This document shows, piece after piece, positions 49,990 to 63,353 of a DNA stretch of 64,000 nt. Numbering within the stretch: position 1 is the stretch's first letter; each line of letters opens with the position of its first letter. The position numbers and the translations under genes were made by a program. Below the pieces are notes generated by a model. The model had not been told where the DNA came from, did not search any database, and was given only the letters and a program-made list of their open reading frames with translations. This DNA comes from Candidatus Poribacteria bacterium (lineage in GTDB: Bacteria > Poribacteria > WGA-4E > WGA-3G): NCBI GenBank assembly GCA_965215265.1, contig OZ244048.1, forward strand, positions 2,752,001-2,816,000, in the 5' to 3' direction.

Positions 49990-51861
49990 TTAATCCGAAA
50001 CCCGCCAAAGTCCCCTACCCAAACGGGCCCCTAAAAGTACGCCGATAAAGGTATAGGCGAAACCTTCAACAAAAATACGTAGAAACATATACCATTCCGC
50101 ATAGAACAATCGATAGAAGACGATTGAGAGTTGGAAATCAACATAAACAGCGAGCGCATCGCAAATTCCCAACGCGACTGCCCACGCCAATAAACCACGG
50201 TGCTGCACAAACCAGAATCCTGTTTCAAGCAACAGCACGCTTGTACTCGTATAGATAATCATCATCGGGGTAAAAAGCCCAAACGTGATACCCCCGAGTA
50301 GCAACCCAACAGCAGAAACCAGGAGGATTACCCCCGGTTTACCGCCGCCGGTGCCCCTCTTCCCTCTCGGTTCCCCACCGATATAGAATAACAGCGCAGT
50401 CAATAGGGCATAGTAGAACGTCTCGTTAACCAGACCCGTCAGCAGCACAGAGACAGGACCCAGTACAGAACGGATCAGATTCATGAAGAGCGTTGACGGA
50501 ATAATAACGCATACAAACACAGTCGCACCGAAAAGCGCGATGACAATCAGCTGTTTTGTTGAGAACAGCGAAAAAAAACGGGTGTGAAATCGGAGCACCA
50601 CTCCTAATCCGATAATGCTCACCATCACTGCTGCCCCAGTCACAAACAATGCATGGCGATTGGGTATAATAATCTGAAGCGGACGTTCTGCGCGCAGCAC
50701 CGTAGTCCGACTGCCCCAGATCTTCACCTCAATCTCACGTTTGTAGTCGCCTGCCTGCGCGGCCACCATATCCAAATAAATCGGTAAGGGAATAGAGCTT
50801 AGCATTTGCGGTGGTAGGCTCGCAAAAGCGACGCTCCTGTCCGTCCCTGCGTTAACCGCATCGGGGGGCGTGAGAAACGGCACCGTCTCTCCGCTGTTTG
50901 CATCACGGTTAATAGCAGAAATAACAACATGGATAGTCTCCTGCCCATGATTGTGGAGTTTCACCGTTTGGTATGCCACCGGCTCATAAGCATCAATTGA
51001 GAGATGCCGCCATCGGCCGAGAACCGGCTGGGCATGATAGAGGGTATCCGTGCGCTGCCGTGCATCCACAACGCCCACTGCATCCGTAGGCATCTGAACC
51101 GATTCAATTGAAAGCAATCCGCCAATCTCCTCCACCGTTGCTGAACGCACACGCAATTGCACCTGCTGCTCCCACGTCTCATCCCCTTCAAACCTAACCC
51201 TACCACGAATTGTGGTGTTGTTAGAATTATCCGAAACTTCATGGATTTTCAGCACCAATTCACTATACCAGACCTCGCCGGCGACAGTAAATGTCCCGGA
51301 AGTTGATAAGCAGATTTGCTCATCAAGCGTCTCTTCTATCCAACCTTTTGGAAGTGAAACCACTGTAATTGCTTGCGGTAGACAGAGCTGAACACGAAAG
51401 TCAGCATTCACGTCTGCGTTCCCATTTTTCAAAAGCACCGTCGCCGTCACGTCACTGTTGTGGAGTACAAGAGATGCAGGGGGCGTAGACTGTGAGTGTG
51501 TCACCGCCGCCCCGTACGGAATTGAGATTTCCAGACTGCCGCGCGTCTGCACCTGGGGCGCGGTAACTGTTCGAACGCTGATATCGGAATTCGCGAGCAC
51601 TATCTCAAACCGATAGCGCTCGCCTTCGCGCCACTCAAAATAAAGCGATTCCACCTGACGAGGCGGCACAGGAAAATCAAGCCGCGCCACCTTCATACCC
51701 TCACGATTAAAAGCTGCAACGCTTTTGACTGAGGATGGAATGTGAAGCTTTGCCCCCAGTGGAAAAAACTCTATTTTCCATACAAGAGGTGTCTCTTTTC
51801 CTTTTTCACCACAACCCAATAGGAGTAGAGGGAAAAAGAGACACAATACCGATTTTCCCAT
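49990..51861 (-). CDS. Lipoprotein-signal protein with large soluble region and C-terminal ECF S-component-like membrane domain
   Basis: LLLLGC lipobox; C-terminal 6-7 TM beginning FSTKQLIVIALFGA with a KPG motif. Confidence 0.55.
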   Translation of the reverse strand: MGKSVLCLFFPLLLLGCGEKGKETPLVWKIEFFPLGAKLHIPSSVKSVAAFNREGMKVARLDFPVPPRQVESLYFEWREGERYRFEIVLANSDISVRTVTAPQVQTRGSLEISIPYGAAVTHSQSTPPASLVLHNSDVTATVLLKNGNADVNADFRVQLCLPQAITVVSLPKGWIEETLDEQICLSTSGTFTVAGEVWYSELVLKIHEVSDNSNNTTIRGRVRFEGDETWEQQVQLRVRSATVEEIGGLLSIESVQMPTDAVGVVDARQRTDTLYHAQPVLGRWRHLSIDAYEPVAYQTVKLHNHGQETIHVVISAINRDANSGETVPFLTPPDAVNAGTDRSVAFASLPPQMLSSIPLPIYLDMVAAQAGDYKREIEVKIWGSRTTVLRAERPLQIIIPNRHALFVTGAAVMVSIIGLGVVLRFHTRFFSLFSTKQLIVIALFGATVFVCVIIPSTLFMNLIRSVLGPVSVLLTGLVNETFYYALLTALLFYIGGEPRGKRGTGGGKPGVILLVSAVGLLLGGITFGLFTPMMIIYTSTSVLLLETGFWFVQHRGLLAWAVALGICDALAVYVDFQLSIVFYRLFYAEWYMFLRIFVEGFAYTFIGVLLGARLGRGLWRVSD

Positions 51862-51871
51862 ATCGTTATAC

Positions 51872-53119
51872 CTACTTCGGGCTATCGAAGGAATTTGCCA
51901 CTAACACAAGATCGCGAATATCAACCACTTCATCCATGTTGATATCAGCGAGTATCGCCTGTCCCTGTTCGCCCAGATATCGGCTCACAATGAAAAGATC
52001 TGCAGTGTCAATAAAGCCATCGTCATTGACATCTTCAGCCCTCGGCACAATCTGTGCAATTCCTATAATAGAGGCCCCCGGACCGACTTGATACGTTTGA
52101 CGGAGCGTCTCATCGGCTCCCATAATGCGCACCATATCCTGGCCGCCGCCAGTCCAATCTGGATAGGTGATATAGAGGCTCCCATCTGCCGTGAAAGCCA
52201 TACCGGAGCCGCCACCGAAATCAACAAGCGCATCCGCTTTATCGCGAACCCATCTTTCTGTGACTAAATCATAGATGAGAAGCCCCGGTGCCGGCCAGCC
52301 ACCTTGGATAAACAGCTTCTCTTCCGAATTGAGAGCAAAACTACCCGGTGCCATCTTAAGCGGTACTGTTTTGCGAACCTCAGCCGTGGCTGCATCAATC
52401 AGCACCAGATTTCCTGGGATGAGATTGTAATCGCCTATTGTTTTGACAATCACGGTATTCTCTCCATCGTTGAGAATACCACCTGCATTTGTCGGCATGG
52501 CGATGGACTTGAGAACAGTGTCTGTCTCGGTATCAATTACCGTCAGACTGCTATCGTGATAGTTAACTTTACGTGCCTCTGCATCGTACTCCCACGCAGG
52601 ATTGGTAATGTACGCCTTACCGTCCAGAACAGTTATCCCTGTCGGTTTGTTGAAAGGTCCCGTAATGGTTTTGGTCACATTCCGATTAGCAATGTCTATG
52701 ACATGTACTTCATGCACAGCGTCACACGTCACGTACATCCTGTTAACATCTACAAAAGCGAGACTCTGCGGTTGTGCACCTGCACGAATCGGAATTTCGC
52801 CCACAATCTCTCGCCGCTGAAGATTGATAATTAAGATGTTATTGCTATAAACGTTAGGAATATATGCGAGATGTCCCCGAATGAGCAAATCGCTCGGGAC
52901 ATTGCCCAGGGGAATAATCTGATTGTCAACAGCACGTTTCTCATTCGGTTCCATTAAATCTATAATTGAGAGAGATGTGGTAATACCCAACTCAGGGTGA
53001 GTCAGTGCGTTTACAACAACACCAAGATGCTGAACCTCTGCCTGTCCCAAAGCAGCACCAGCAAGCAGAATGAACAGGATACTACACGCTATGCATGTTT
53101 TAAAAAAACTTGTTTTCAT
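51872..53119 (-). CDS. YncE/YVTN-type beta-propeller with C-terminal dockerin (BtuG-like candidate)
   Basis: Start MKTSFF at 53119 after GGAGG; blades such as VHVIDIA, KAYITN, LTVIDTETDTV; DVNDDGFID / DINMDEVVDIRD. Confidence 0.75.
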   Translation of the reverse strand: MKTSFFKTCIACSILFILLAGAALGQAEVQHLGVVVNALTHPELGITTSLSIIDLMEPNEKRAVDNQIIPLGNVPSDLLIRGHLAYIPNVYSNNILIINLQRREIVGEIPIRAGAQPQSLAFVDVNRMYVTCDAVHEVHVIDIANRNVTKTITGPFNKPTGITVLDGKAYITNPAWEYDAEARKVNYHDSSLTVIDTETDTVLKSIAMPTNAGGILNDGENTVIVKTIGDYNLIPGNLVLIDAATAEVRKTVPLKMAPGSFALNSEEKLFIQGGWPAPGLLIYDLVTERWVRDKADALVDFGGGSGMAFTADGSLYITYPDWTGGGQDMVRIMGADETLRQTYQVGPGASIIGIAQIVPRAEDVNDDGFIDTADLFIVSRYLGEQGQAILADINMDEVVDIRDLVLVANSFDSPK

Positions 53120-53135
53120 TAAAACCTCCGTAATG

Positions 53136-53163
53136 AAACAAAAATCCCTGCTTTCGTCAGGGA
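53136..53163 (-). terminator. Probable riboswitch expression-platform terminator
   Basis: Minus strand TCCCTG-ACGAAAG-CAGGGA followed by TTTTTGTTT, just before the RBS. Confidence 0.6.
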
Positions 53164-53269
53164 AAACAGGGGCAACTTGGAGGCACGAACGCTTTTGCAA
53201 AGCGAAATTGCACATATCAATAGCACGTGCTGTTCCACTGCTCTCCCGCGAAAGCAATAGTGTGAACAC

Positions 53270-53445
53270 GACTCAGGCAGGTCTCCTGACTTCCGATCTT
53301 TCCGCTCCACCTTCCCATCAAACTGATAGTGGTTTTGAAGCGGATACTTTGCCCTTTTGGCAAAAAATCGTTCACAGTGGCGGGGCCGTGGCGGTTTCTC
53401 ACCGCGCTTCCCTATTCTCCGTAAAACGGCACCTGAACCGTAATG
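53270..53445 (-). promoter_or_regulatory. Cobalamin riboswitch
   Basis: Minus strand CAGGTGCC...AATAGGGAA.CGCGGTGAGAAACCGC.ACGGCCCCGCCACTGTGA...GGGAAGG...AAGTCAGGAGACCTGCC (B12 box). Confidence 0.95.
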
Positions 53446-53466
53446 TATTCAATTGTTATCAGGTAT

Positions 53467-53495
53467 ATTATATCACATTATAGTCCTTTTTGCAA
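53467..53495 (-). promoter_or_regulatory. sigma70 promoter for the riboswitch transcript
   Basis: TTGCAA-17-TATAAT with extended TG. Confidence 0.75.
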
Positions 53496-53541
53496 TTCTT
53501 TTTTTCATATTCCCAAATTCAGGCACCGATAGTTAATCAAC

Positions 53542-54306
53542 TTAATCCTGTGGTACTACGTCGGCGTAGGTGATATAAGTGGGGTGCGTGTTTTTGGAGT
53601 GAATGCCGTCGTCAGCGGCAGGCGGAATTTCTCTTTGGACGATTTGTCCCGGGCGAGCGTGAATCGGCGAAGTGAACATGGGGCCATCTATAACGCATGT
53701 GTGAAACTCGCCGTTTTCACCAAGTGCATCCACGCCATCCGGTAGGTCCGCGAGGAATTGCCGGTCGAACCATCTCCCCACAAATTCACTTGCTAACTTG
53801 ACAGGATTCGCGCACGTTATCATGGCACGCATGCCAGCGGCAATCATCCTCTCTGCCAATTGGGTGGTGTCTGTGCCCCATATCGGGAAAAGCGGGGTAA
53901 AACCGGTCCCGCTGAGATTGTCTTCGCGGTAACGCCGGATGTCTTCTAAGAAAAGATCGCCGAACGCGAAATGCGATACGCCCAAATCTTCTGGCAATGC
54001 CTGAATTTGTGTCAGGAAATGGCGCATAGCGGCTTCATATTGAGCGTTGGAACACGGAAACGGAATCCGTATCTCATAGAGCGGAACACCCAATTTTTCG
54101 GATTGCTGTTTCAGTACCCAGCGCGGTGTAGCGTGGATGGAAACGCGTTCAAACGTCTCAGTCACGGTGGTAAAAATACCACGTACATCGTAGCGCTCAG
54201 ACTGTTGACGAAGGGTATGGAGTGCCCAGGCCGAGTCTTTGCCTGAAGACCAAGAAACTAAAACCGGGATAGGCTGTATAGCATTAGTGATAGTAGTTGT
54301 GCTCAT
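53542..54306 (-). CDS. Dph6-related PP-loop ATP pyrophosphatase
   Basis: SWSSGKDS, FGDLFLEDIR.YRE, GENGEFHT. Confidence 0.88.
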   Translation of the reverse strand: MSTTTITNAIQPIPVLVSWSSGKDSAWALHTLRQQSERYDVRGIFTTVTETFERVSIHATPRWVLKQQSEKLGVPLYEIRIPFPCSNAQYEAAMRHFLTQIQALPEDLGVSHFAFGDLFLEDIRRYREDNLSGTGFTPLFPIWGTDTTQLAERMIAAGMRAMITCANPVKLASEFVGRWFDRQFLADLPDGVDALGENGEFHTCVIDGPMFTSPIHARPGQIVQREIPPAADDGIHSKNTHPTYITYADVVPQD

Positions 54307-54448
54307 GACTGCATCTTTTTCTTTGTTGTTTTCGTCATCTTCAATTCCTATCCTTTTAGAAGCTCATATCCGATATGAACCTCACTTGTATGATACCGAA
54401 CTTCAGATTTGGATGTCAACTTTAAAATCTGTACATTGAGGAAAAAAT

Positions 54449-54477
54449 TTGACAACACGCACGAAATGTGGTATTAT
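54449..54477 (+). promoter_or_regulatory. sigma70 promoter of the leader-hisI-trpE-trpG operon
   Basis: TTGACA-17-TATTAT with extended TG. Confidence 0.8.
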
Positions 54478-54512
54478 AATTAAGAGTCATAAAAAGTAAA
54501 TAAGCAACAAAC

Positions 54513-54590
54513 ATGCTATTTTCAGATTTACACCTCAGTTTGCATAGCACCACTCACAATTGGCATTGGTGGCGTTTCCAATTCCGATAA
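54513..54590 (+). CDS. Attenuator leader peptide MLFSDLHLSLHSTTHNWHWWRFQFR (TrpL-like, His-rich)
   Basis: Hand-translated 25-aa ORF with WHWWR, between the promoter and a terminator upstream of hisI-trpE-trpG. Confidence 0.85.
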   Translation: MLFSDLHLSLHSTTHNWHWWRFQFR

Positions 54591-54644
54591 GGGGAGTGTG
54601 CGCGCAAACGAAACTGATACTGATTCTGGACTGCTTTTTTTTAC

Positions 54645-54688
54645 ACCTTATGCACACGAACCCTCGTGGTATAAGGTTTTTGTTTTTT
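54645..54688 (+). terminator. Attenuator terminator
   Basis: ACCTTATGCACACGA-ACCC-TCGTGGTATAAGGT followed by TTTTGTTTTTT. Confidence 0.85.
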
Positions 54689-54705
54689 AACATAGGAGGA
54701 TCCGC

Positions 54706-55086
54706 ATGAGAATTTTATCAGAACTCAAATTTGACCGTGATGGGTTAGTTGCCGCTATCATTCAGGATCACACCAATAATCAAGTCCTGATGCTCGGTTA
54801 TATGAACACAGACGCAATAAAAGAGACGTTAAGCACCGGGCGTGTCTGCTTCTGGAGCCGCTCACGCCAGAAACTCTGGATAAAGGGGGAGACCTCAGGG
54901 CACACCCAAACCGTAAAATCCATCGCTGTTGACTGTGATGGCGATGCCTTACTTATAAAGGTCGAGCAGAAGGTAGCAGCATGTCATGCCGGCTATCGTT
55001 CTTGCTTCTTTCGGGAAGTCTCCCCCAACGGTCAATCGACACAGATTATAGGAGAAAAGATTTTTGAAGCAGATAGCGTGTATTAA
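54706..55086 (+). CDS. hisI: Phosphoribosyl-AMP cyclohydrolase
   Basis: [40 protein letters not shown]. Confidence 0.96.
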
Positions 55087-55094
55087 CCAACGCA

Positions 55095-55121
55095 CTCCGG
55101 GCTGACGCAGAGAGCCCGGAG
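55095..55121. repeat. Intergenic hairpin between hisI and trpE
   Basis: CTCCGGGCT-GACGCAGAG-AGCCCGGAG with no U tract. Confidence 0.5.
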
Positions 55122-55141
55122 GCTACGTCAAAGGAACCACC

Positions 55142-56635
55142 ATGTATTATCCAACGCTTGAAGAATTTAGAGAAAAAGCCACAGCAGGAAACACCGTCCC
55201 AGTCTACCGGCCGATTCTGGCAGACATGGAGACCCCGGTTTCCGCGTTCTATAAATTGATGCCTAATGACTTTGCGTTCCTCCTTGAGAGCGTTGAGGGG
55301 GGCGAAAACGTCGCACGCTACTCTTTTTTGGGGAGCCAGCCGTCAGTGCTTTTCCACAGTAAGGGGCAACACGTCACGATCGAGCATCTCTCAAAAGGCG
55401 AGACCGTCTCACAAGAACATACAGACCCGTTAAAGGCGCTTGAAGATTTGATGCATCACTACCAACCCGTCAAAGTGGATGGGTTACCACAATTCCACGG
55501 TGGCGCTGTCGGCTATATCAGTTATGACATGGTACGTTTTGTTGAGGAACTCCCTGATGAGACAACTGATGAGTTAGAACTTCCAGATTGCTTCTTCATG
55601 ATCGCGGAGACGCTTCTCGTGTTTGACCATGTGAATCATCAAATTAAGGTTGTCGCGAATGCTCAGATTGACGGCGAAGTCGACGCAGCTTACACGGAGG
55701 CGATCGCTACGATTGAGGGAATAGTTGAGAGACTAAAATCGACACCCAATAGGAACGAGCCACAGCGCATCCTACCTGCTTCAGCAGAAACCCCACAAAG
55801 CACCGTCAAATCTAATTTTAGCAAGTCTGATTACAAAAGAGCAGTAGAACGCGCGAAGGAATACATAACCGCAGGCGACATCATACAGGTGGTGCCATCT
55901 CAGCGCCTCAGCCGTCAATTATCCGTTGAGCCCTTTGATGTCTATCGAGCGTTGCGAGTTGTGAACCCTTCGCCCTATATGTACTACCTCAAGTTTGACA
56001 GTTTTGACATCGTCGGTGCATCGCCAGAGATGATGGTGCGCGTAGAAGATCGCCTTGTCCAAACGCGCCCGATTGCAGGCACGCTTCCACGTGGCAAAAC
56101 CGCCGAAGAAGACAAAGAATTGGAGCGCCAACTCATCAACGACCCGAAGGAACGAGCAGAACACGTTATGCTCGTCGATCTTGGCAGAAACGACCTCGGC
56201 AGAGTGTGCGAATACCACACCGTCGAAGTCACAGATTTGATGATAGTCGAACGGTTCTCACATGTGATGCACATCGTCTCACACGTTATCGGACAACTCC
56301 GCGCAGAGCTCTCTGCTTTTGATGTCATCAGGGCGTGTCTCCCTGCGGGAACGCTGTCCGGTGCGCCTAAGATACGTGCAATGGAAATCATCGATGAACT
56401 TGAGCCAACGCGCCGGGGACCCTATGGCGGCGCTGTCGGATACTTCAGTTTCTCTGGGAGTGCAGATACCGCCATTACGATTCGAACCGCTGTGATAAAA
56501 GAACGTGTCGCTTACGTCCAGGCCGGCGGGGGAATCGTCGCCGATTCTGTCCCAGAAACGGAGTATTATGAGACTATGAACAAGGCACACGCCTTGCTCA
56601 GGGCCATTGATATTGCCGAAAAAGGGTTGCTATAA
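55142..56635 (+). CDS. trpE: Anthranilate synthase component I
   Basis: LLES feedback motif, NPSPYM, GASPE, PIAGT, EHVMLVDLGRND, PAGTLSGAPK. Confidence 0.96.
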   Translation: MYYPTLEEFREKATAGNTVPVYRPILADMETPVSAFYKLMPNDFAFLLESVEGGENVARYSFLGSQPSVLFHSKGQHVTIEHLSKGETVSQEHTDPLKALEDLMHHYQPVKVDGLPQFHGGAVGYISYDMVRFVEELPDETTDELELPDCFFMIAETLLVFDHVNHQIKVVANAQIDGEVDAAYTEAIATIEGIVERLKSTPNRNEPQRILPASAETPQSTVKSNFSKSDYKRAVERAKEYITAGDIIQVVPSQRLSRQLSVEPFDVYRALRVVNPSPYMYYLKFDSFDIVGASPEMMVRVEDRLVQTRPIAGTLPRGKTAEEDKELERQLINDPKERAEHVMLVDLGRNDLGRVCEYHTVEVTDLMIVERFSHVMHIVSHVIGQLRAELSAFDVIRACLPAGTLSGAPKIRAMEIIDELEPTRRGPYGGAVGYFSFSGSADTAITIRTAVIKERVAYVQAGGGIVADSVPETEYYETMNKAHALLRAIDIAEKGLL

Positions 56636-56716
56636 ATGCCCATTCTCCTCGACAACAGCAAGCACCCTGGTCCGAGCAGTGAGTAGAAATTGATTCCACG
56701 GAGGACATAACATAAA

Positions 56717-57280
56717 ATGGTCTTAATGATTGACAACTACGATTCATTCACCTATAACCTCGTGCAGTATCTTGGCGAGCTAGGCGCAGAACTACACGTC
56801 CACCGCAGTAAAAAAGTCACGCTGGACAAATTGGACGCACTCGCACCAGAACGAATTGTCATCTCACCAGGACCCTGCACACCCAAAGAAGCCGGCATCT
56901 CCAACGATGTCATACGACACTTCGCCGGACAAGTCCCGATTTTGGGCGTTTGCCTCGGGCACCAGTGCATCGGAGACGTTTTCGGCGGCGAGGTAGTACG
57001 GGCTGAGCGGTTAATGCACGGAAAAACTTCTATGATAGAACACGACGGGAACGAGTTATTCAAAAACTTGGATAACCCGTTTGAGGCAACACGTTATCAT
57101 TCACTAATTGTCAAAAAGGAGACGCTACCAGAATCCCTAAAGATTACTGCATGGACAGCCCTGGATGAAATTATGGGGTTACGACATAAGACGCTGCCGA
57201 TCTGGGGGGTGCAGTTTCATCCAGAGTCGATTTTAACAACTGCCGGGAAAGACCTCTTGCAGAATTTTTTGAGATTGTAA
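56717..57280 (+). CDS. trpG: Anthranilate/aminodeoxychorismate synthase component II (glutamine amidotransferase)
   Basis: [28 protein letters not shown]; adjacent to trpE. Confidence 0.92.
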
Positions 57281-57509
57281 ACACTATCCACGATAAGGAG
57301 ACAGACACAAAGCACAGGAGGAACGTTCACGTTGAGGCAATAGCGATACAGCGATACATTGAACTCACGCTCTTAAGCTTGGTGATGCTATGCCAGCAGC
57401 GATATAATCTGTGAGATAACGAACAAGAAAAATATTGCTCTGTTTTCTATAAGCTGCTATAATTGCCACAGATGTCAAATCCCCTCAAAAAAAACAAGGA
57501 GCATGAACA

Positions 57510-59146
57510 TTGCCAAAAAACACGACTTCACTCGCTGCAACCCAAACTACACTGCTATTTCCGCCTGCAGACGAGCAACATTTGAACATAGCCACGCTTG
57601 AGACGTGGCTGTGGGATGCCGCTTGTGTGATTCGCGGCGCGACTGATGCCCCGAAATTCAAGGATTTTATCCTGCCCCTGATCTTCTACAAGCGGCTTTC
57701 GATGTGTTCGACGATGAATTTGCCAAACAGGTTGAGGAGTTCGGTGATGAAGAATCCGCACGCGACATCATCGCAACCGACCATGGGGATGCACTCAGGA
57801 ACGATCGGGCACCGATTGTCCGTTTTTACATCCCGCAAAGTTATCATTGGGATGCGCTTCGCAGCCACCCTGCAGATGGGCACTTAGGCGAATTTCTCAC
57901 CGAAGCGATGCGGGAGGTGGCACGGCTGAATCCGCTGTTGCAAGGTGTGCTTGATGTGAAAGACTTCAACGAAACACAGAGCGGCCAGCGTACCCTTGGC
58001 GACGACCGGCTGGCGCAACTCATTGAAGTGATGAGCCGGTATCGACTTGGGCTGCAAGATACAGAGCCGGATATCCTCGGGCGTGCGTATGAATACTTGT
58101 TGCGGAAGTTTGCCGAAGGACAGGGGCAGAGCGCGGGCGAGTTCTATACCCCAAAAGAGGTCGGATGGCTGATGGCAAAACTGATTAACCCGGCCCCTTA
58201 TACGACGATTTACGACCCGGCGTGCGGTTCTGGCGGGCTGCTTATCAAACCGCGTTTGTTATTTGAGCAGGCACACCCGGATAAAAAGAGCCAAGCTCCT
58301 CAAATCTATGGGCAAGAGTCGAATGCTACTACCTACGCCATGGCGAAGATGAACGCCTTTCTGCACGATTTTATCGGCGCGGATTTTCGCATCGGCGATA
58401 CCTTCCGCAATCCGCGCTTTGTTACCGACGGCACCGCACTACAACGCTTCGATTATGTCCTCGCCAATCCGATGTGGAATCAAGATAGTATGACGAAAAC
58501 CTTTTACGCGAATGATAGCTGGCGGCGGTTTCAGGACGGAATACCGCCCAATTCCTCAGCAGATTGGGCATGGGTGCAGCACATGCTCAACTCACTGAAA
58601 GGGAACGGACGCGCCGCGATTGTGTTGGATACCGGGGCAGTCTCCCGAGGGTCCGGCGCTAAACAGAAGAATAAAGAGCGCGACATCCGCAAAGCGTTTG
58701 TGGAGAACGACCTGATCGAAGGCGTGCTCCTTTTACCCGACGACCTGTTTTACAATACGGGCTCGCCGGGTATCATCTTGCTGCTGAACCGCAACAAACC
58801 GCCAGAACGCAACGCGCAAATCCTGCTGATCAACCTTTCCAAATATTTCGTCAAGCAGGATCCTAAAAACGTGCTAACCGATGAAGGGATTGATGCGGCA
58901 ACGGAAGTCTATCGGGCGTGGGAGTCCCGTAACAAGTTGAGCCGTGTCATCACGTTAGAAGATGCGCGAAAAACTGATTACAACCTGAATCCTTCGCAGT
59001 TTGTAGACTTGAGCGATAGAGTCGAACACCGTCCTATCTCTGATATTCTGGCAGACTTCACGGAGACGCGTATGGCTCGCGAAAAGGCGGATAAGGCGTT
59101 GGAAGAGGTGTTGACACGCCTCGGACTCAATACGCGGAGGGGGTAA
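57510..59146 (+). pseudogene. hsdM: Type I R-M methyltransferase with a one-base-deletion frameshift near 57700
   Basis: 5' frame [22 protein letters not shown] continues as DVFDDEF in another frame; GEFYTP, DPACGSGG and ANPMW downstream. Confidence 0.88.
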
Positions 59147-60381
59147 TGCGTAAGATGAATTTGCCAGAATACTTAGAAATTGGGGAAATTCCTGAGAGTT
59201 GGAAGGCTGTTCGATTAGAAGAAATCGCTGACGTGCGGGCAGGTGCAGCTTTTCCTAAAAAATATCAAGGGAATACACAAGGAAAATACCCTTTTTACAA
59301 AGTTTCAGACATGAATCTTATAGGAAATGAAACTTTAATGAGCGGATCAAATAATTGGGTAGAGGAAAATACAGTTCAAACTCTCAGAGCAAAATTATTT
59401 CCAAAAAATACAGTCATTTTTCCAAAAGTGGGGCAGACTATTCATACGAATAAAAAGCGGATGCTATCTCGCGATAGTTTAGTGGATAACAACGTGATGG
59501 GGGTAACGATTCGAGATTACGATCAATGTTTTCCTTATTATATGTTGTATTGGTTTGAATTTATTGACTTAGTTGATCTTTCTAATCCTGGTCCTCTTCC
59601 GGCAATTACGGCTACGACAGTAAAAAATACGAAAATTCCCCTCCCCCCACTGCCCGAACAACGCGCCATTGCCCACGTCTTACAGACAATCCAAGACGCT
59701 AAAGCGACGCGGCAACGCGAGATTGCATTAGCACGGGAGCATAAAGCAGCGTTGATGGATTACCTCTTTTCACACGGCACGACGGGGGAACCCCGCAAAC
59801 AGACAGAGATTGGGGAAATTCCGAAGAGTTGGAAAATTTTGCCCTTTGAAGCGTGTTTGAAAAAGCTTAAACCTAAGAAAGTGTCATCTATTCCGAAAAA
59901 AGACTATCAGACAGCCGGCGATTTTCCAGTCATTGACCAAGGGGCATCATTTATTTCAGGTTGGACAAACTCCGTTGAGTGTATCATTTTTGAGAACTTG
60001 CCTGTGATTATCTTTGGAGACCATACTCGCATTTTCAAATATGTTGATTTTCCATTTGCGATTGGGGCTGATGGAACGAAACGCCTCTATGCAAACGATG
60101 ATTTTTTGGATGCCCGCTTTTTCTATTACGCACTTGTGAATCTAAAAGTGCCGAATAAGGGATATAATCGACACTATAGGTATTTGCGAGAGTTTTCAGT
60201 TCCGTGTCCACCATTGCCTGAACAACGTGCCATTGCACAGGTTTTTCAGGCAATTGATGAAAAAATCGCAGCCCTTGAACAAGAAGTGATATATTTAGAT
60301 GAGTTGTTCTACGCTATGCTTGACGAACTGATGACAGGGCAGAGGACTGCTGTACCGCTGATCGATGCGCAGATTGTCTGA
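59146..60381 (+). CDS. hsdS: Type I R-M specificity subunit
   Basis: Two TRDs, each with GEIP..W and PPLPEQRAIA. Confidence 0.93.
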   Translation: MRKMNLPEYLEIGEIPESWKAVRLEEIADVRAGAAFPKKYQGNTQGKYPFYKVSDMNLIGNETLMSGSNNWVEENTVQTLRAKLFPKNTVIFPKVGQTIHTNKKRMLSRDSLVDNNVMGVTIRDYDQCFPYYMLYWFEFIDLVDLSNPGPLPAITATTVKNTKIPLPPLPEQRAIAHVLQTIQDAKATRQREIALAREHKAALMDYLFSHGTTGEPRKQTEIGEIPKSWKILPFEACLKKLKPKKVSSIPKKDYQTAGDFPVIDQGASFISGWTNSVECIIFENLPVIIFGDHTRIFKYVDFPFAIGADGTKRLYANDDFLDARFFYYALVNLKVPNKGYNRHYRYLREFSVPCPPLPEQRAIAQVFQAIDEKIAALEQEVIYLDELFYAMLDELMTGQRTAVPLIDAQIV

Positions 60382-60474
60382 ACTGAACCTACATGCAAAA
60401 TTGATACCTATTTTTGCAATTTTGCATCTGATTAACGGCCGACAACGTGCCGCTAGTAAAATTCGAGGACAGTT

Positions 60475-63353
60475 ATGTCTGAACGTTCTGTAGTCCAGGA
60501 GCCGATGCTCAAATACGCTAATGAAATTGGGTGGGAGTCTATTTCTCTATCAGAAGCGATGTGCATGCGTGGCGGTGATAGCGCCGCGTTTTATTTTACT
60601 GATGTGCTGAAAGCACAACTGTTGAAACTCAACAGGGGCGTGGTAGACGACTCCAATTGCGCGGATGTTATGCGGCGGCTCGGTTTGCTTGATGCGACAC
60701 TTGAGGGAAATCAGCAGGCACTTTCCTGGCTGCGCGGGGAACAGTCAATTTTTGTTCAGAACGAAAACCGCGAGTGCAATGTCAGACTAATCGATTTTGA
60801 AAACCCGGACAATAACCTGTTTCATGTAACCGATGAATGGTTGCAGCAAGGCACCGTGCATCGTAACCGTGCCGATGTTGTGTTTCTGATTAACGGGATT
60901 CCGATGGTCGTTGTGGAAACCAAAAATGCTACGAAGGTAGATGGCTTGGCGACTGGTGTCGAACAAATTCGTCGTTACCACCGCGAAACGCCGGAGTTGT
61001 TTACCACAGCACAACTCTTCGGTGTCACGCAGCTGCTGGACTTTTTCTATAGCGTGACGTGGAACACGAGTCGTAAAAACCTGTTCAACTGGAAAACAGA
61101 CGAACCTACCAACTACGAGCAGAAGGTGAAGACGTTCTTTGAGCGAGAGCGCTTCCTGAAGGTATTGAAGGAGTCGATTATTTTCCAGAGCAAAGATGAT
61201 GCGTTGACAAAAGTAGTGTTGCGGCAGCACCAGACGCGTGCTGTAGAGAGGGTGATTGCGCGGGTTGCGGATGCGAACAAACGGCGTGGGCTTGTCTGGC
61301 ACACGCAGGGCAGCGGGAAAACCTTGACGATGATAACCATCGCGTCACAATTATTGCGCGGTGGACACCAAACCGAAAAACCGACTGTGCTCATGCTAAT
61401 TGACCGGAATGAATTGGAAAGCCAGCTCTTTAGAAACCTCACCGGTTACGGGATTACCACGTTTGAAGTCGCAGAAAGCAAGCGCGACCTGCGGGAGATT
61501 TTAGCGTCTGATTACCGGGGATTGGTTGTGTCCATGATTCATAAGTTTGATGGTATCCCGGCGAACATCAACCCGCGCGACGGTGTGACTGTGCTTGTTG
61601 ACGAAGCACACCGAACCACTAGCGGCGATTTGGGAAATTACCTGATGGCAGCCCTCCCGAATGCGACCTATATCGGTTTTACCGGCACCCCGATTGACAA
61701 CCTGTCACATGGCGACGGGACATTTAAGGTGTTCGGTGTGGATGACGAGCAGGGCTATCTGGATAAGTATGCGATCGCTGAATCGATTGAAGATGGGACA
61801 ACTGTTTCCTTGAATTACGCGCTCGCACCGTCTGATTTACAAGTGGATCGCGAAACATTGGAACAGGAATTTTTAAGTCTTGTGGTAAACGAAGGCATGA
61901 GTGATCTGGAAGAGCTCAACGCAATTCTTGACAGTGCTGTCCAGTTAAAAGCGATGATGAAGGCACCGGAGCGGGTAGATAGCATTGCTAAGTATGTTGC
62001 ACAACACTTCCAAAACACTGTAGAACCGATGGGCTTCAAGGCATTTCTGGTGGCTGTTGACCGGGAGGCGTGCGCGTTATATAAGCAGGCACTGGACAAA
62101 CATTTACCATCAGCGTATTCGGAGGTGGTCTATTCTCCATACCATCAAGATTCTGAGACGCTCAAGGCATATCACCACACCGCAGACGAAGAAAAGGAGA
62201 TGCGAAAACGATTCACAGACAAGAACGAGCATCCAAAAATTCTGATTGTAACCCAAAAGTTGTTGACCGGCTTCGACGCACCGATTCTTTACTGCATTTA
62301 TCTGGATAAACCGATGCGCGACCACGTACTGTTGCAGGCGATTGCCCGTGTCAACCGACCGTATGAGGACAAAGACGGCCTGGTTAAACCTGCCGGATTT
62401 GTCTTAGATTTTGTCGGCATCTTTGAAAACCTCGAAAGAGCACTTGCTTTTGATTCAGACATAGTGGAGAGCGTGATTCAGAATATTGAGGTCCTCAAAG
62501 AGGCTTTCGCCAAGCAGATGTGTGGAGATGCTGCGATATATTTACCGCTAGCCGCGGGTTGGGACGATAAAGCAAAAGAGCGAGCCATTACGCATTTTGA
62601 GGACAAGGACAGCCGAGAAACTTTTTTCAAATTCTTCAGGGGATTGCAAAACCTTTACAACATTCTTTCACCGGATGCTTTTTTACGTCCGTTTATAGAG
62701 GATTATCAGGCACTTGCATCCGTCTATGGCCTGATTCGTAACGCTTATGCCGACCGCATCTACACGTTGATAAGGAGTTAACCGCCAAAACACGTGAACT
62801 TTTACAAACGCATACAGAGAGCAATCTGTTTGAGTTACCAGATGCAGTTTATGAATTGAGCCCTGACACCTTGAGGGAAATTGATCAGAGCGATGCATCT
62901 GAGACGGTCAAGGTTTTGAATTTGCGGAAGGCCCTGCGGCAGACGGTAACGGACGAAAGTCAATCGAAGCCGTTTCTGACTTCGATTGGCGAACGTGCGG
63001 AGACAATTACGGCGGCTTATGAAAACCGTCAACTTTCGACACAAGATGTTTTGGCTAGGTTTATAGAGCTAGCCGAGAAGTATGCCCGTGCTGCAAGAGA
63101 ACGCGACCGGCTGGGCTTGGACGAGAACGCCTTTGCGGTTTATACGGTCCTCAAGGACGTTATGAAAGACGTTACCCCGGAACAAGCACGTGCCGTTAAT
63201 CAGGTGTTTACGCGATTTCCTGACTATCAGTGGAACAGCCACCAAGAAAGCGCGCTGCGGATGAGGCTCTATAGTACATTGAAACCTACAGTTGGAACAG
63301 AAAATCTGATCGAAACAACAAACAAATTGTTGAAGTTGGAACGAGTAAAGTAG
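60475..63353 (+). pseudogene. hsdR: Type I R-M restriction subunit with a frameshift near 62763
   Basis: RADVVFLINGIP..VETK, WHTQGSGKT, DEAHR, GFTGTP; after RIY the sequence VDKELTAKTRELL...ELSPDTL continues in another frame to 63353. Confidence 0.88.

Follow-up and report, generated by a model that had tools for sequence, protein, structure and literature searches.

In the trpL leaders of E. coli and other bacteria, actinobacteria included, a short open reading frame (ORF) with adjacent Trp codons precedes trpE, and the leader transcript can fold into mutually exclusive hairpins. The stop codon of this ORF lets a terminating ribosome mask segment 2 of the leader, while pairing of segments 1 and 2 terminates a leader that is not translated. 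Classical his leaders have a long uninterrupted run of His codons and no Trp. The thr leader has Thr and Ile codons, the ilv leaders have Ile, Leu and Val codons, and a shortage of any of these amino acids relieves termination. In leader-peptide attenuators, a shortage of a charged tRNA can relieve termination if its codon lies anywhere within the stall window. Here, we analysed a 64,000-nucleotide stretch of DNA, hereafter referred to as the window, from a member of Candidatus Poribacteria, which are uncultivated, mostly sponge-associated bacteria. In the window, a short ORF with interleaved His and Trp codons lies between a promoter and a predicted terminator, ahead of hisI, trpE and trpG. 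The sequence of this region and its relatives leads us to propose, with a probability of about 0.6, that it is a ribosome-mediated attenuator of hisI-trpE-trpG that responds to a shortage of His-tRNA or of Trp-tRNA.

The poribacterial leader shares with trpL the short ORF with adjacent Trp codons ahead of trpE, the mutually exclusive hairpins, and a stop codon placed so that a terminating ribosome could mask segment 2. In the window, a candidate 1:2 pairing may also terminate the untranslated leader. The leader differs from trpL in that its Trp codons alternate with His codons, hisI and not trpE comes first in the operon, and the host belongs to an uncultivated phylum. Furthermore, in the fold of the window leader, the hairpin that holds the Trp codons is enclosed by the 1:2 helix, and these codons are not part of segment 1. 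As in hisL of enterobacteria, His codons precede a histidine-biosynthesis gene and a terminator; a leader ahead of hisZ in the same genome likewise has His codons upstream of a histidine-biosynthesis gene. Unlike hisL, the leader has only 2-4 His codons interleaved with Trp, and anthranilate synthase is among the products of its operon. In logic, the thr and ilv leaders, in which codons for several amino acids are interspersed, come closest. However, the amino acids of those leaders belong to one connected pathway, whereas the poribacterial leader combines two biochemically separate pathways in front of a hybrid operon.

The first-pass annotation of this DNA was not aware of a described His+Trp leader, and the openly searchable literature yielded no description of one. 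The same searches found no attenuator from Poribacteria. No His+Trp leader is described in the accessible portions of PMC4833913, PMC1262725 and PMC1183508. A cmscan of positions 53000-58000 against the 4227 families of Rfam 15, with E values up to 10, gave no match on the leader, and its only matches were a cobalamin riboswitch on the other strand and one snoRNA match at chance level. The leader is thus no member of a curated Rfam leader family, and it shares its proposed mechanism with those families.

The leader region and the operon

The features of the region are the following:

54449-54477, + strand: sigma-70-type promoter, TTGACA-17-TATTAT, the -10 hexamer being preceded by TG; agrees with the consensus at 11 of 12 positions
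54513-54590, + strand: predicted leader ORF, 25 codons and TAA; product MLFSDLHLSLHSTTHNWHWWRFQFR
54535-54555, + strand: segment 1, 5' strand of the predicted anti-antiterminator; its partner in the minimum-free-energy fold is segment 2
54555-54572, + strand: putative regulatory codon block, codons 15-20, His-Asn-Trp-His-Trp-Trp
54559-54588, + strand: predicted local hairpin of the Trp codons (ATTGG) with downstream CCAAT/CCGAT (RNAfold)
54594-54617, + strand: segment 2, with the core GTGTGCG at 54596-54602; alternative partners are segment 1 or segment 3
about 54644-54688, + strand: predicted intrinsic terminator, segments 3 and 4 followed by a U-tract (RNAfold)
54651-54657, + strand: segment 3, TGCACAC, 3' strand of the predicted antiterminator inside the 5' arm of the terminator
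54706-55086, + strand: hisI, phosphoribosyl-AMP cyclohydrolase (PRA-CH), first structural gene (PF01502, 125 bits; NF000768, 172 bits, cut-off 126)
55142-56635, + strand: trpE, anthranilate synthase component I (TIGR00564, 600 bits, cut-off 518; Pfam Anth_synt_I_N and Chorismate_bind)
56717-57280, + strand: trpG (or pabA), glutamine amidotransferase component II, last gene of the unit (TIGR00566, 274 bits; GATase)

The promoter that the first-pass annotation had placed ahead of the leader ORF is present, and its position predicts a transcript start at approximately 54484-54486. The 25-codon ORF with four His and three Trp codons was recovered at the same coordinates and with the same translation; His is encoded by codons 7, 11, 15 and 18, and Trp by codons 17, 19 and 20. 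There is no clear Shine-Dalgarno sequence upstream of this ORF in the window, and GGAGG is found at 54695-54699, ahead of hisI. The region thus has a short ORF enriched in the putative regulating codons, which is characteristic of leader-peptide attenuators, and its translation is predicted. In the long ORFs of the genome, His and Trp make up 2.5% and 1.4% of codons, respectively. With this background, the probability of at least four His among 24 codons is 0.0027 and that of at least three Trp is 0.0045, each for one ORF taken alone. The decisive argument against chance is the recurrence of the predicted ORF, the His/Trp block and the putative RNA elements across the phylum.

The gene hisI is the sole PF01502 (PRA-CH) match in the 4.83-Mb genome, which is a single contig, and it should therefore be the working histidine gene; the possibility of a spare paralogue was ruled out on the same ground. 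The remaining trp and his genes are scattered in the genome as trpB-(HEAT protein)-trpA, trpD-trpC, trpF, hisA and hisF, and hisZ-hisG-hisS. A PriA-type isomerase shared by the histidine and tryptophan pathways was considered as a reason for the linkage and was ruled out, since trpF and both hisA- and hisF-type genes are present. HisI does not use PRPP. The suggestion in the first-pass annotation that the leader couples two PRPP-consuming pathways is not supported, because the PRPP users, HisG and TrpD, are encoded elsewhere in the genome. The spacer between hisI and trpE is 55 nt in the window and varies from 8 to 702 nt across species (e.g. L010, L004).

RNA structure of the leader

The predicted terminator hairpin at 54644-54677 has 14 pairs with one bulge and a folding energy of -16 to -19 kcal/mol (RNAfold), and it is directly followed by the U-tract at 54678-54688, which reads TTTTTGTTTTTT. 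A simple pattern-based terminator scan did not have the hairpin at 54645-54677 among its calls; nevertheless, the hairpin and the U-tract bear out the intrinsic terminator that had been assigned to 54645-54688. Folding of the leader with RNAfold, a check proposed along with that assignment, predicted both the terminator and the segment 1:2 helix. The latter, which had also been proposed, appears in the minimum-free-energy fold as the pairing of 54535-54555 with 54594-54617. The alternative pairing of GTGTGCG with TGCACAC was likewise recovered, 54596-54602 being complementary to 54651-54657 in the 5' arm of the terminator. The whole leader fold has a z-score of -3.09 relative to shuffled sequence (RNAfold). 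Segment 2 starts 4 nt past the stop codon of the leader ORF, so that a terminating ribosome would cover it. The region therefore has, as predicted elements, both a terminator before the first gene and an antiterminator that shares a strand with it.

Conservation of these elements was assessed in an alignment of 52 distinct leaders, A1. The Trp-His-Trp-Trp core is invariant or nearly so in A1, which mixes loci derived by homology with loci derived by pattern, so that the invariance of the pattern is partly built in. The antiterminator pairing GTGTGCG:TGCACAC is paired in 98.9% of the cells of the 52 leaders; when slid by 2 columns it is still paired in 74-81%, since its strands are GU repeats. 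One pair of this helix shows a compensatory change, from G-U to C-G, in 9 sequences of families f2 and f3. Without any hint given, RNAalifold picked out the antiterminator as the principal conserved helix and also placed a small hairpin over the Trp codons. The helices of the off state are together paired in 88.0% of cells in A1, against 33-48% in slid controls. Individually, the family-wide core of the segment 1:2 helix, TCACACTCC:GGAGTGTG (family f1), is paired in 87.4% of cells, the helix equivalent to the local hairpin over the Trp codons in 86.2%, and the outer stem of the terminator in 89.5%. Covariation is limited because the leader sequences are very similar, and kinship among them inflates the shuffle statistics of the alignment. 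In L182 and L183, which come from another class, the antiterminator strands are GTGTGTCC and GGAYACA; these are changed yet complementary, as judged by eye.

In one locus, L025 (genome G004), about 45 nt that include a perfect hairpin of their own are inserted between segment 2 and the terminator. Only Trp-His-Trp-Arg is left of the Trp cluster, and this attenuator may be decaying or repeat-modified.

When the leader was folded at equilibrium with a stalled ribosome, the terminator won in every state. Since the terminator is always favoured at equilibrium, the attenuator model must be kinetic, like that of the classical trp attenuator. A simulation of nascent RNA was therefore used, which folds only the RNA that is free between the stalled ribosome and the polymerase. 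In the printed structures of this simulation, A-site stalls at codons 17-23 of the window leader gave the antiterminator, stalls before about codon 9 gave the 1:2 helix, and at codons 25-26 segment 2 was masked. A second measure was the fraction of the 5' arm of the terminator that is sequestered by upstream RNA. For the window leader, this fraction was 0.15 without a ribosome, 0.44-0.47 for codons 9-24 (0.27 for codon 15) and 0.18 at the stop codon. With the ribosome near the stop codon, sequestration fell in all six simulated leaders, namely the window leader and five others. The geometry of an attenuator, with segment 2 covered by a ribosome that has reached the stop codon and exposed by a stalled one, is thus reproduced in silico. 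Without a ribosome, sequestration was as low as 0.08 in L027 and reached 0.52-0.84 in L010, L030, L182 and L183. A role of segment 1 is therefore predicted for the window and L027 only, and it is not general in this simple model.

Distribution of the leader

HisI homology identified loci in 30 relatives, from four families of one order, and hisI adjoins trpE in all of them; one locus is cut short. A leader with an ATG start and a Trp-His-Trp/Arg-Trp core is present in 27 of these 30 loci. The other three (L006, L011 and L013) belong to genus g2, in which the upstream region is different and the leader is absent despite the presence of hisI-trpE. In L013, a run of GC-rich palindromic repeats takes the place of the leader; in L006 and L011, another gene ends about 130 nt upstream. 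Genus g2 keeps the His leader of hisZ (L202, L220, L221).

A scan for the pattern in 185,579 genomes, one per species of bacteria and archaea, gave at least 119 matches, 80 of which are listed. Among the 80 listed, 32 are leader-like; 31 of these carry the label Candidatus Poribacteria, and the remaining one is an 'uncultured bacterium' by its label. In 31 of the 32, hisI lies 146-547 nt downstream, and the remaining one is at a contig end. The other 48 listed matches come from unrelated taxa, have neither hisI nor trpE nearby, and look like chance matches. The collection includes 176 species genomes of Poribacteria, and TrpE was found in 172 of them. Most genomes of genus g11 have two TrpE matches at E < 1e-100. 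In G067 and G059, the second TrpE match has an identity of 41-43% and could be a second chorismate-utilising paralogue.

Leader codons and operon gene content

For a uniform comparison, a table of leaders was made from 58 loci gathered purely by HisI or TrpE homology. The table comprises 51 loci in which hisI comes first and seven without hisI, the latter meaning that no hisI was found within 1500 nt upstream of trpE. A leader with a cluster of at least two Trp codons was found in 39 of the 51 hisI-first loci. The first-pass annotation had set beforehand the question of whether His codons, or the Trp pair alone, are conserved in orthologous leaders. The His codons are conserved: in 38 of these 39 leaders, one or more His codons fall in the range from 4 codons before the Trp cluster to 2 after it, and the 39 have a mean of 3.6 His each (summed by hand). 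The exception, L180, has Tyr between its Trp codons and no His near them, and three His codons farther upstream. In eight further hisI-first loci, the pick has just one Trp codon, with His next to it in L168, L175, L194 and L195 and no His in L181. Single-Trp picks in L165, L169, L187 and L189 are doubtful, and no leader was seen in the hisI-first loci L165 and L189. Four hisI-first loci had no leader call, three of which are those of genus g2 and one of which is cut short.

The loci without hisI have leaders of a different composition. The trpE-only leaders of L166, L182 and L183 have a Trp cluster, zero His codons and the same RNA layout. The trpE-only leaders of L167 and L174 are weaker cases, each with a single core Trp and a single His. 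L187 has no convincing leader, and L184 is too short for classification. These leaders come from two lineages, namely families f10 and f11, which belong to a different class, and genus g9 of family f4, the other genera of which are hisI-first; the comparison thus comprises five leaders in two lineages, and related genomes are not independent. In genus g9, hisI is a divergent stand-alone gene elsewhere in the genome. A search for a His leader upstream of this stand-alone hisI, and of the one in G045, found none.

The cores of the leaders vary and include HWHWW, HHWHWWW, HHHWCWWH, WRHWHW and WWWHW. The positions of His shift while His itself is kept, which speaks against explaining these codons by a fixed RNA sequence.

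A third type of leader is found ahead of hisZ-hisG-hisS in the same genome, at 2568260-2568316 on the minus strand. It has an HHH run and one more His, no Trp, and a near-consensus promoter. A comparable His-only hisZ leader is present in 19 of 23 genomes of the family (L199-L221), and this conservation indicates that the phylum uses predicted His-codon attenuation. By eye, there is no Trp leader ahead of trpD or trpB-trpA in the same genome. Genome-wide scans for Trp and His leaders were of limited use, as the strict version missed the known leader and the looser one gave 113 noisy matches, among which only the hisZ leader was usable. Together, the predicted leaders indicate that codon content tracks operon content, with His-only, Trp-only and His+Trp leaders.

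Proposed mechanism and alternative interpretations

We suggest the following mechanism for the window. Transcription would start from the promoter at 54449-54477, and a ribosome would translate the 25-codon leader. When His and Trp are plentiful, the ribosome would reach the stop codon at 54588-54590 and cover segment 2, so that the 3:4 terminator would form and transcription would end at the U-tract before hisI. When His-tRNA or Trp-tRNA is scarce, the ribosome would stall at codons 15-20, or possibly at His codon 11, and leave segment 2 free. The free segment 2 would then pair with segment 3 as it emerges, no terminator would form, and the polymerase would enter hisI, trpE and trpG. If the leader is not translated, segment 1 would pair with segment 2, leading to termination.

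As in multi-amino-acid attenuators, codons for both amino acids are interspersed in the predicted stall window and match the products of the operon. The leader would thus most likely behave as an OR gate with two inputs, charged tRNA-His and charged tRNA-Trp. The dual sensing put forward in the first-pass annotation is supported by the conservation of the His and Trp codons, by the trpE-only leaders without His and by the His-only hisZ leader; the sensing itself is what we infer, both that a shortage of either amino acid evokes a response and that translation and transcription are coupled in this phylum. The leader is probably a two-input leader for a hybrid his/trp operon, in which evolution would have rewritten the leader codons whenever the operon genes changed. 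Several observations count against the dual reading. The stall window has only 2-3 His codons, far below the number in classical his leaders, and the residue before the first Trp is not always His, since Asp, Thr, Arg, Ala, Tyr and Ser also occur there. Further points against it are the hisI-first exceptions L180, L181, L165, L189 and genus g2, the small trpE-only comparison group, the lack of a clear Shine-Dalgarno sequence in the window, and a segment 1 role that is not general.

The alternative that survives best is a plain tryptophan attenuator, in which Trp-tRNA would be sensed alone, the His codons would be incidental, owing to an RNA constraint or to ancestry, and hisI would be a passenger. 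The Trp cluster is the most invariant feature of A1, and HisI is not known to be flux-controlling in histidine synthesis. CAT encodes the central His in 51 of the 52 aligned leaders; this codon overlaps the predicted local hairpin and could be fixed at the nucleotide level, so that RNA constraints may account for part of its conservation. Candidate RNA constraints are the pairing of CATTGG with CCAATG and that of TCACACTCC with GGAGTGTG. The upstream Ser-His-Ser codons are segment 1 itself, where the pairing is kept via G-U when His is lost, and His-to-Asp changes before the first Trp retain the AT of the codon. Nevertheless, the His-free trpE-only leaders keep the layout of segment 2 and terminator, so the RNA design needs no His codons. 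The position of His also differs among families while its presence is kept, as in HHHWCWWH, WRHWHW and WWWHW, and in genus g9, where hisI is gone from the operon, His is down to 0, 1 and 1. Moreover, starvation for His at a codon flanked by Trp codons would halt the ribosome in the same place as starvation for Trp, which would make some response to His hard to avoid. On this evidence we consider sensing of Trp alone unlikely.

A leader that senses no charged tRNA, acting through an arrest peptide or small protein for a free metabolite or through a protein- or RNA-controlled terminator, would fit the highly conserved peptide core and the lack of a match to any known RNA family, but it is very improbable, because the peptide changes freely outside the His/Trp block while the terminator and antiterminator strands are preserved, as is the placement of the stop codon with respect to segment 2, and because the codons of the leader match the genes of the operon in each of three operon types, which is the hallmark of codon-based attenuation.

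With the attenuator responsive to both His-tRNA and Trp-tRNA as the preferred reading, a single leader for two unrelated amino acids that is matched to a hybrid operon would be new to the searchable literature; leaders for several amino acids of a single pathway are already known. It would be the first cis-regulatory prediction of this kind for Poribacteria and would extend enterobacteria-like attenuation to the his and trp genes of this phylum. The biology is unsurprising in principle, and the finding is so far confined to one phylum. The Trp-only, His+Trp and His-only leaders offer a natural comparison, within one phylum, of regulatory codons with gene content. The leader is also a test case for how few regulatory codons suffice for sensing, and it could serve as a compact template for a two-input amino-acid sensor. 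If the reading is true, the leader codons would be a readable and evolvable record of the regulation of an operon in a phylum that has no cultured member.

Neighbouring genes

Several other features were observed around the operon. The gene at 53542-54306 on the minus strand encodes a diphthine-ammonia-ligase-like ATP pyrophosphatase (PF01902) and is divergent from the leader promoter. It has a promoter-like site of its own, TTGACA-18-TATCAT, at 54390-54419 on the minus strand, and this site and the leader promoter stand back to back in a span of about 60 nt. On the other side, a complete type I restriction-modification system (hsdM, hsdS and hsdR; 57704-62781, plus strand) starts 424 nt past trpG. 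Another methylase and endonuclease pair is found upstream of trpD-trpC, and restriction systems thus flank two of the scattered trp units.

The cobalamin riboswitch is located at 53259-53451 on the minus strand (99.5 bits, E = 9e-25). It lies directly upstream of a gene for a 465-amino-acid dockerin-domain protein with weak beta-propeller matches (51872-53269, minus strand), which is followed by a gene for a 623-amino-acid protein without a Pfam family (49990-51861, minus strand). These two riboswitch-led genes may have a B12-regulated function at the cell surface or in uptake.
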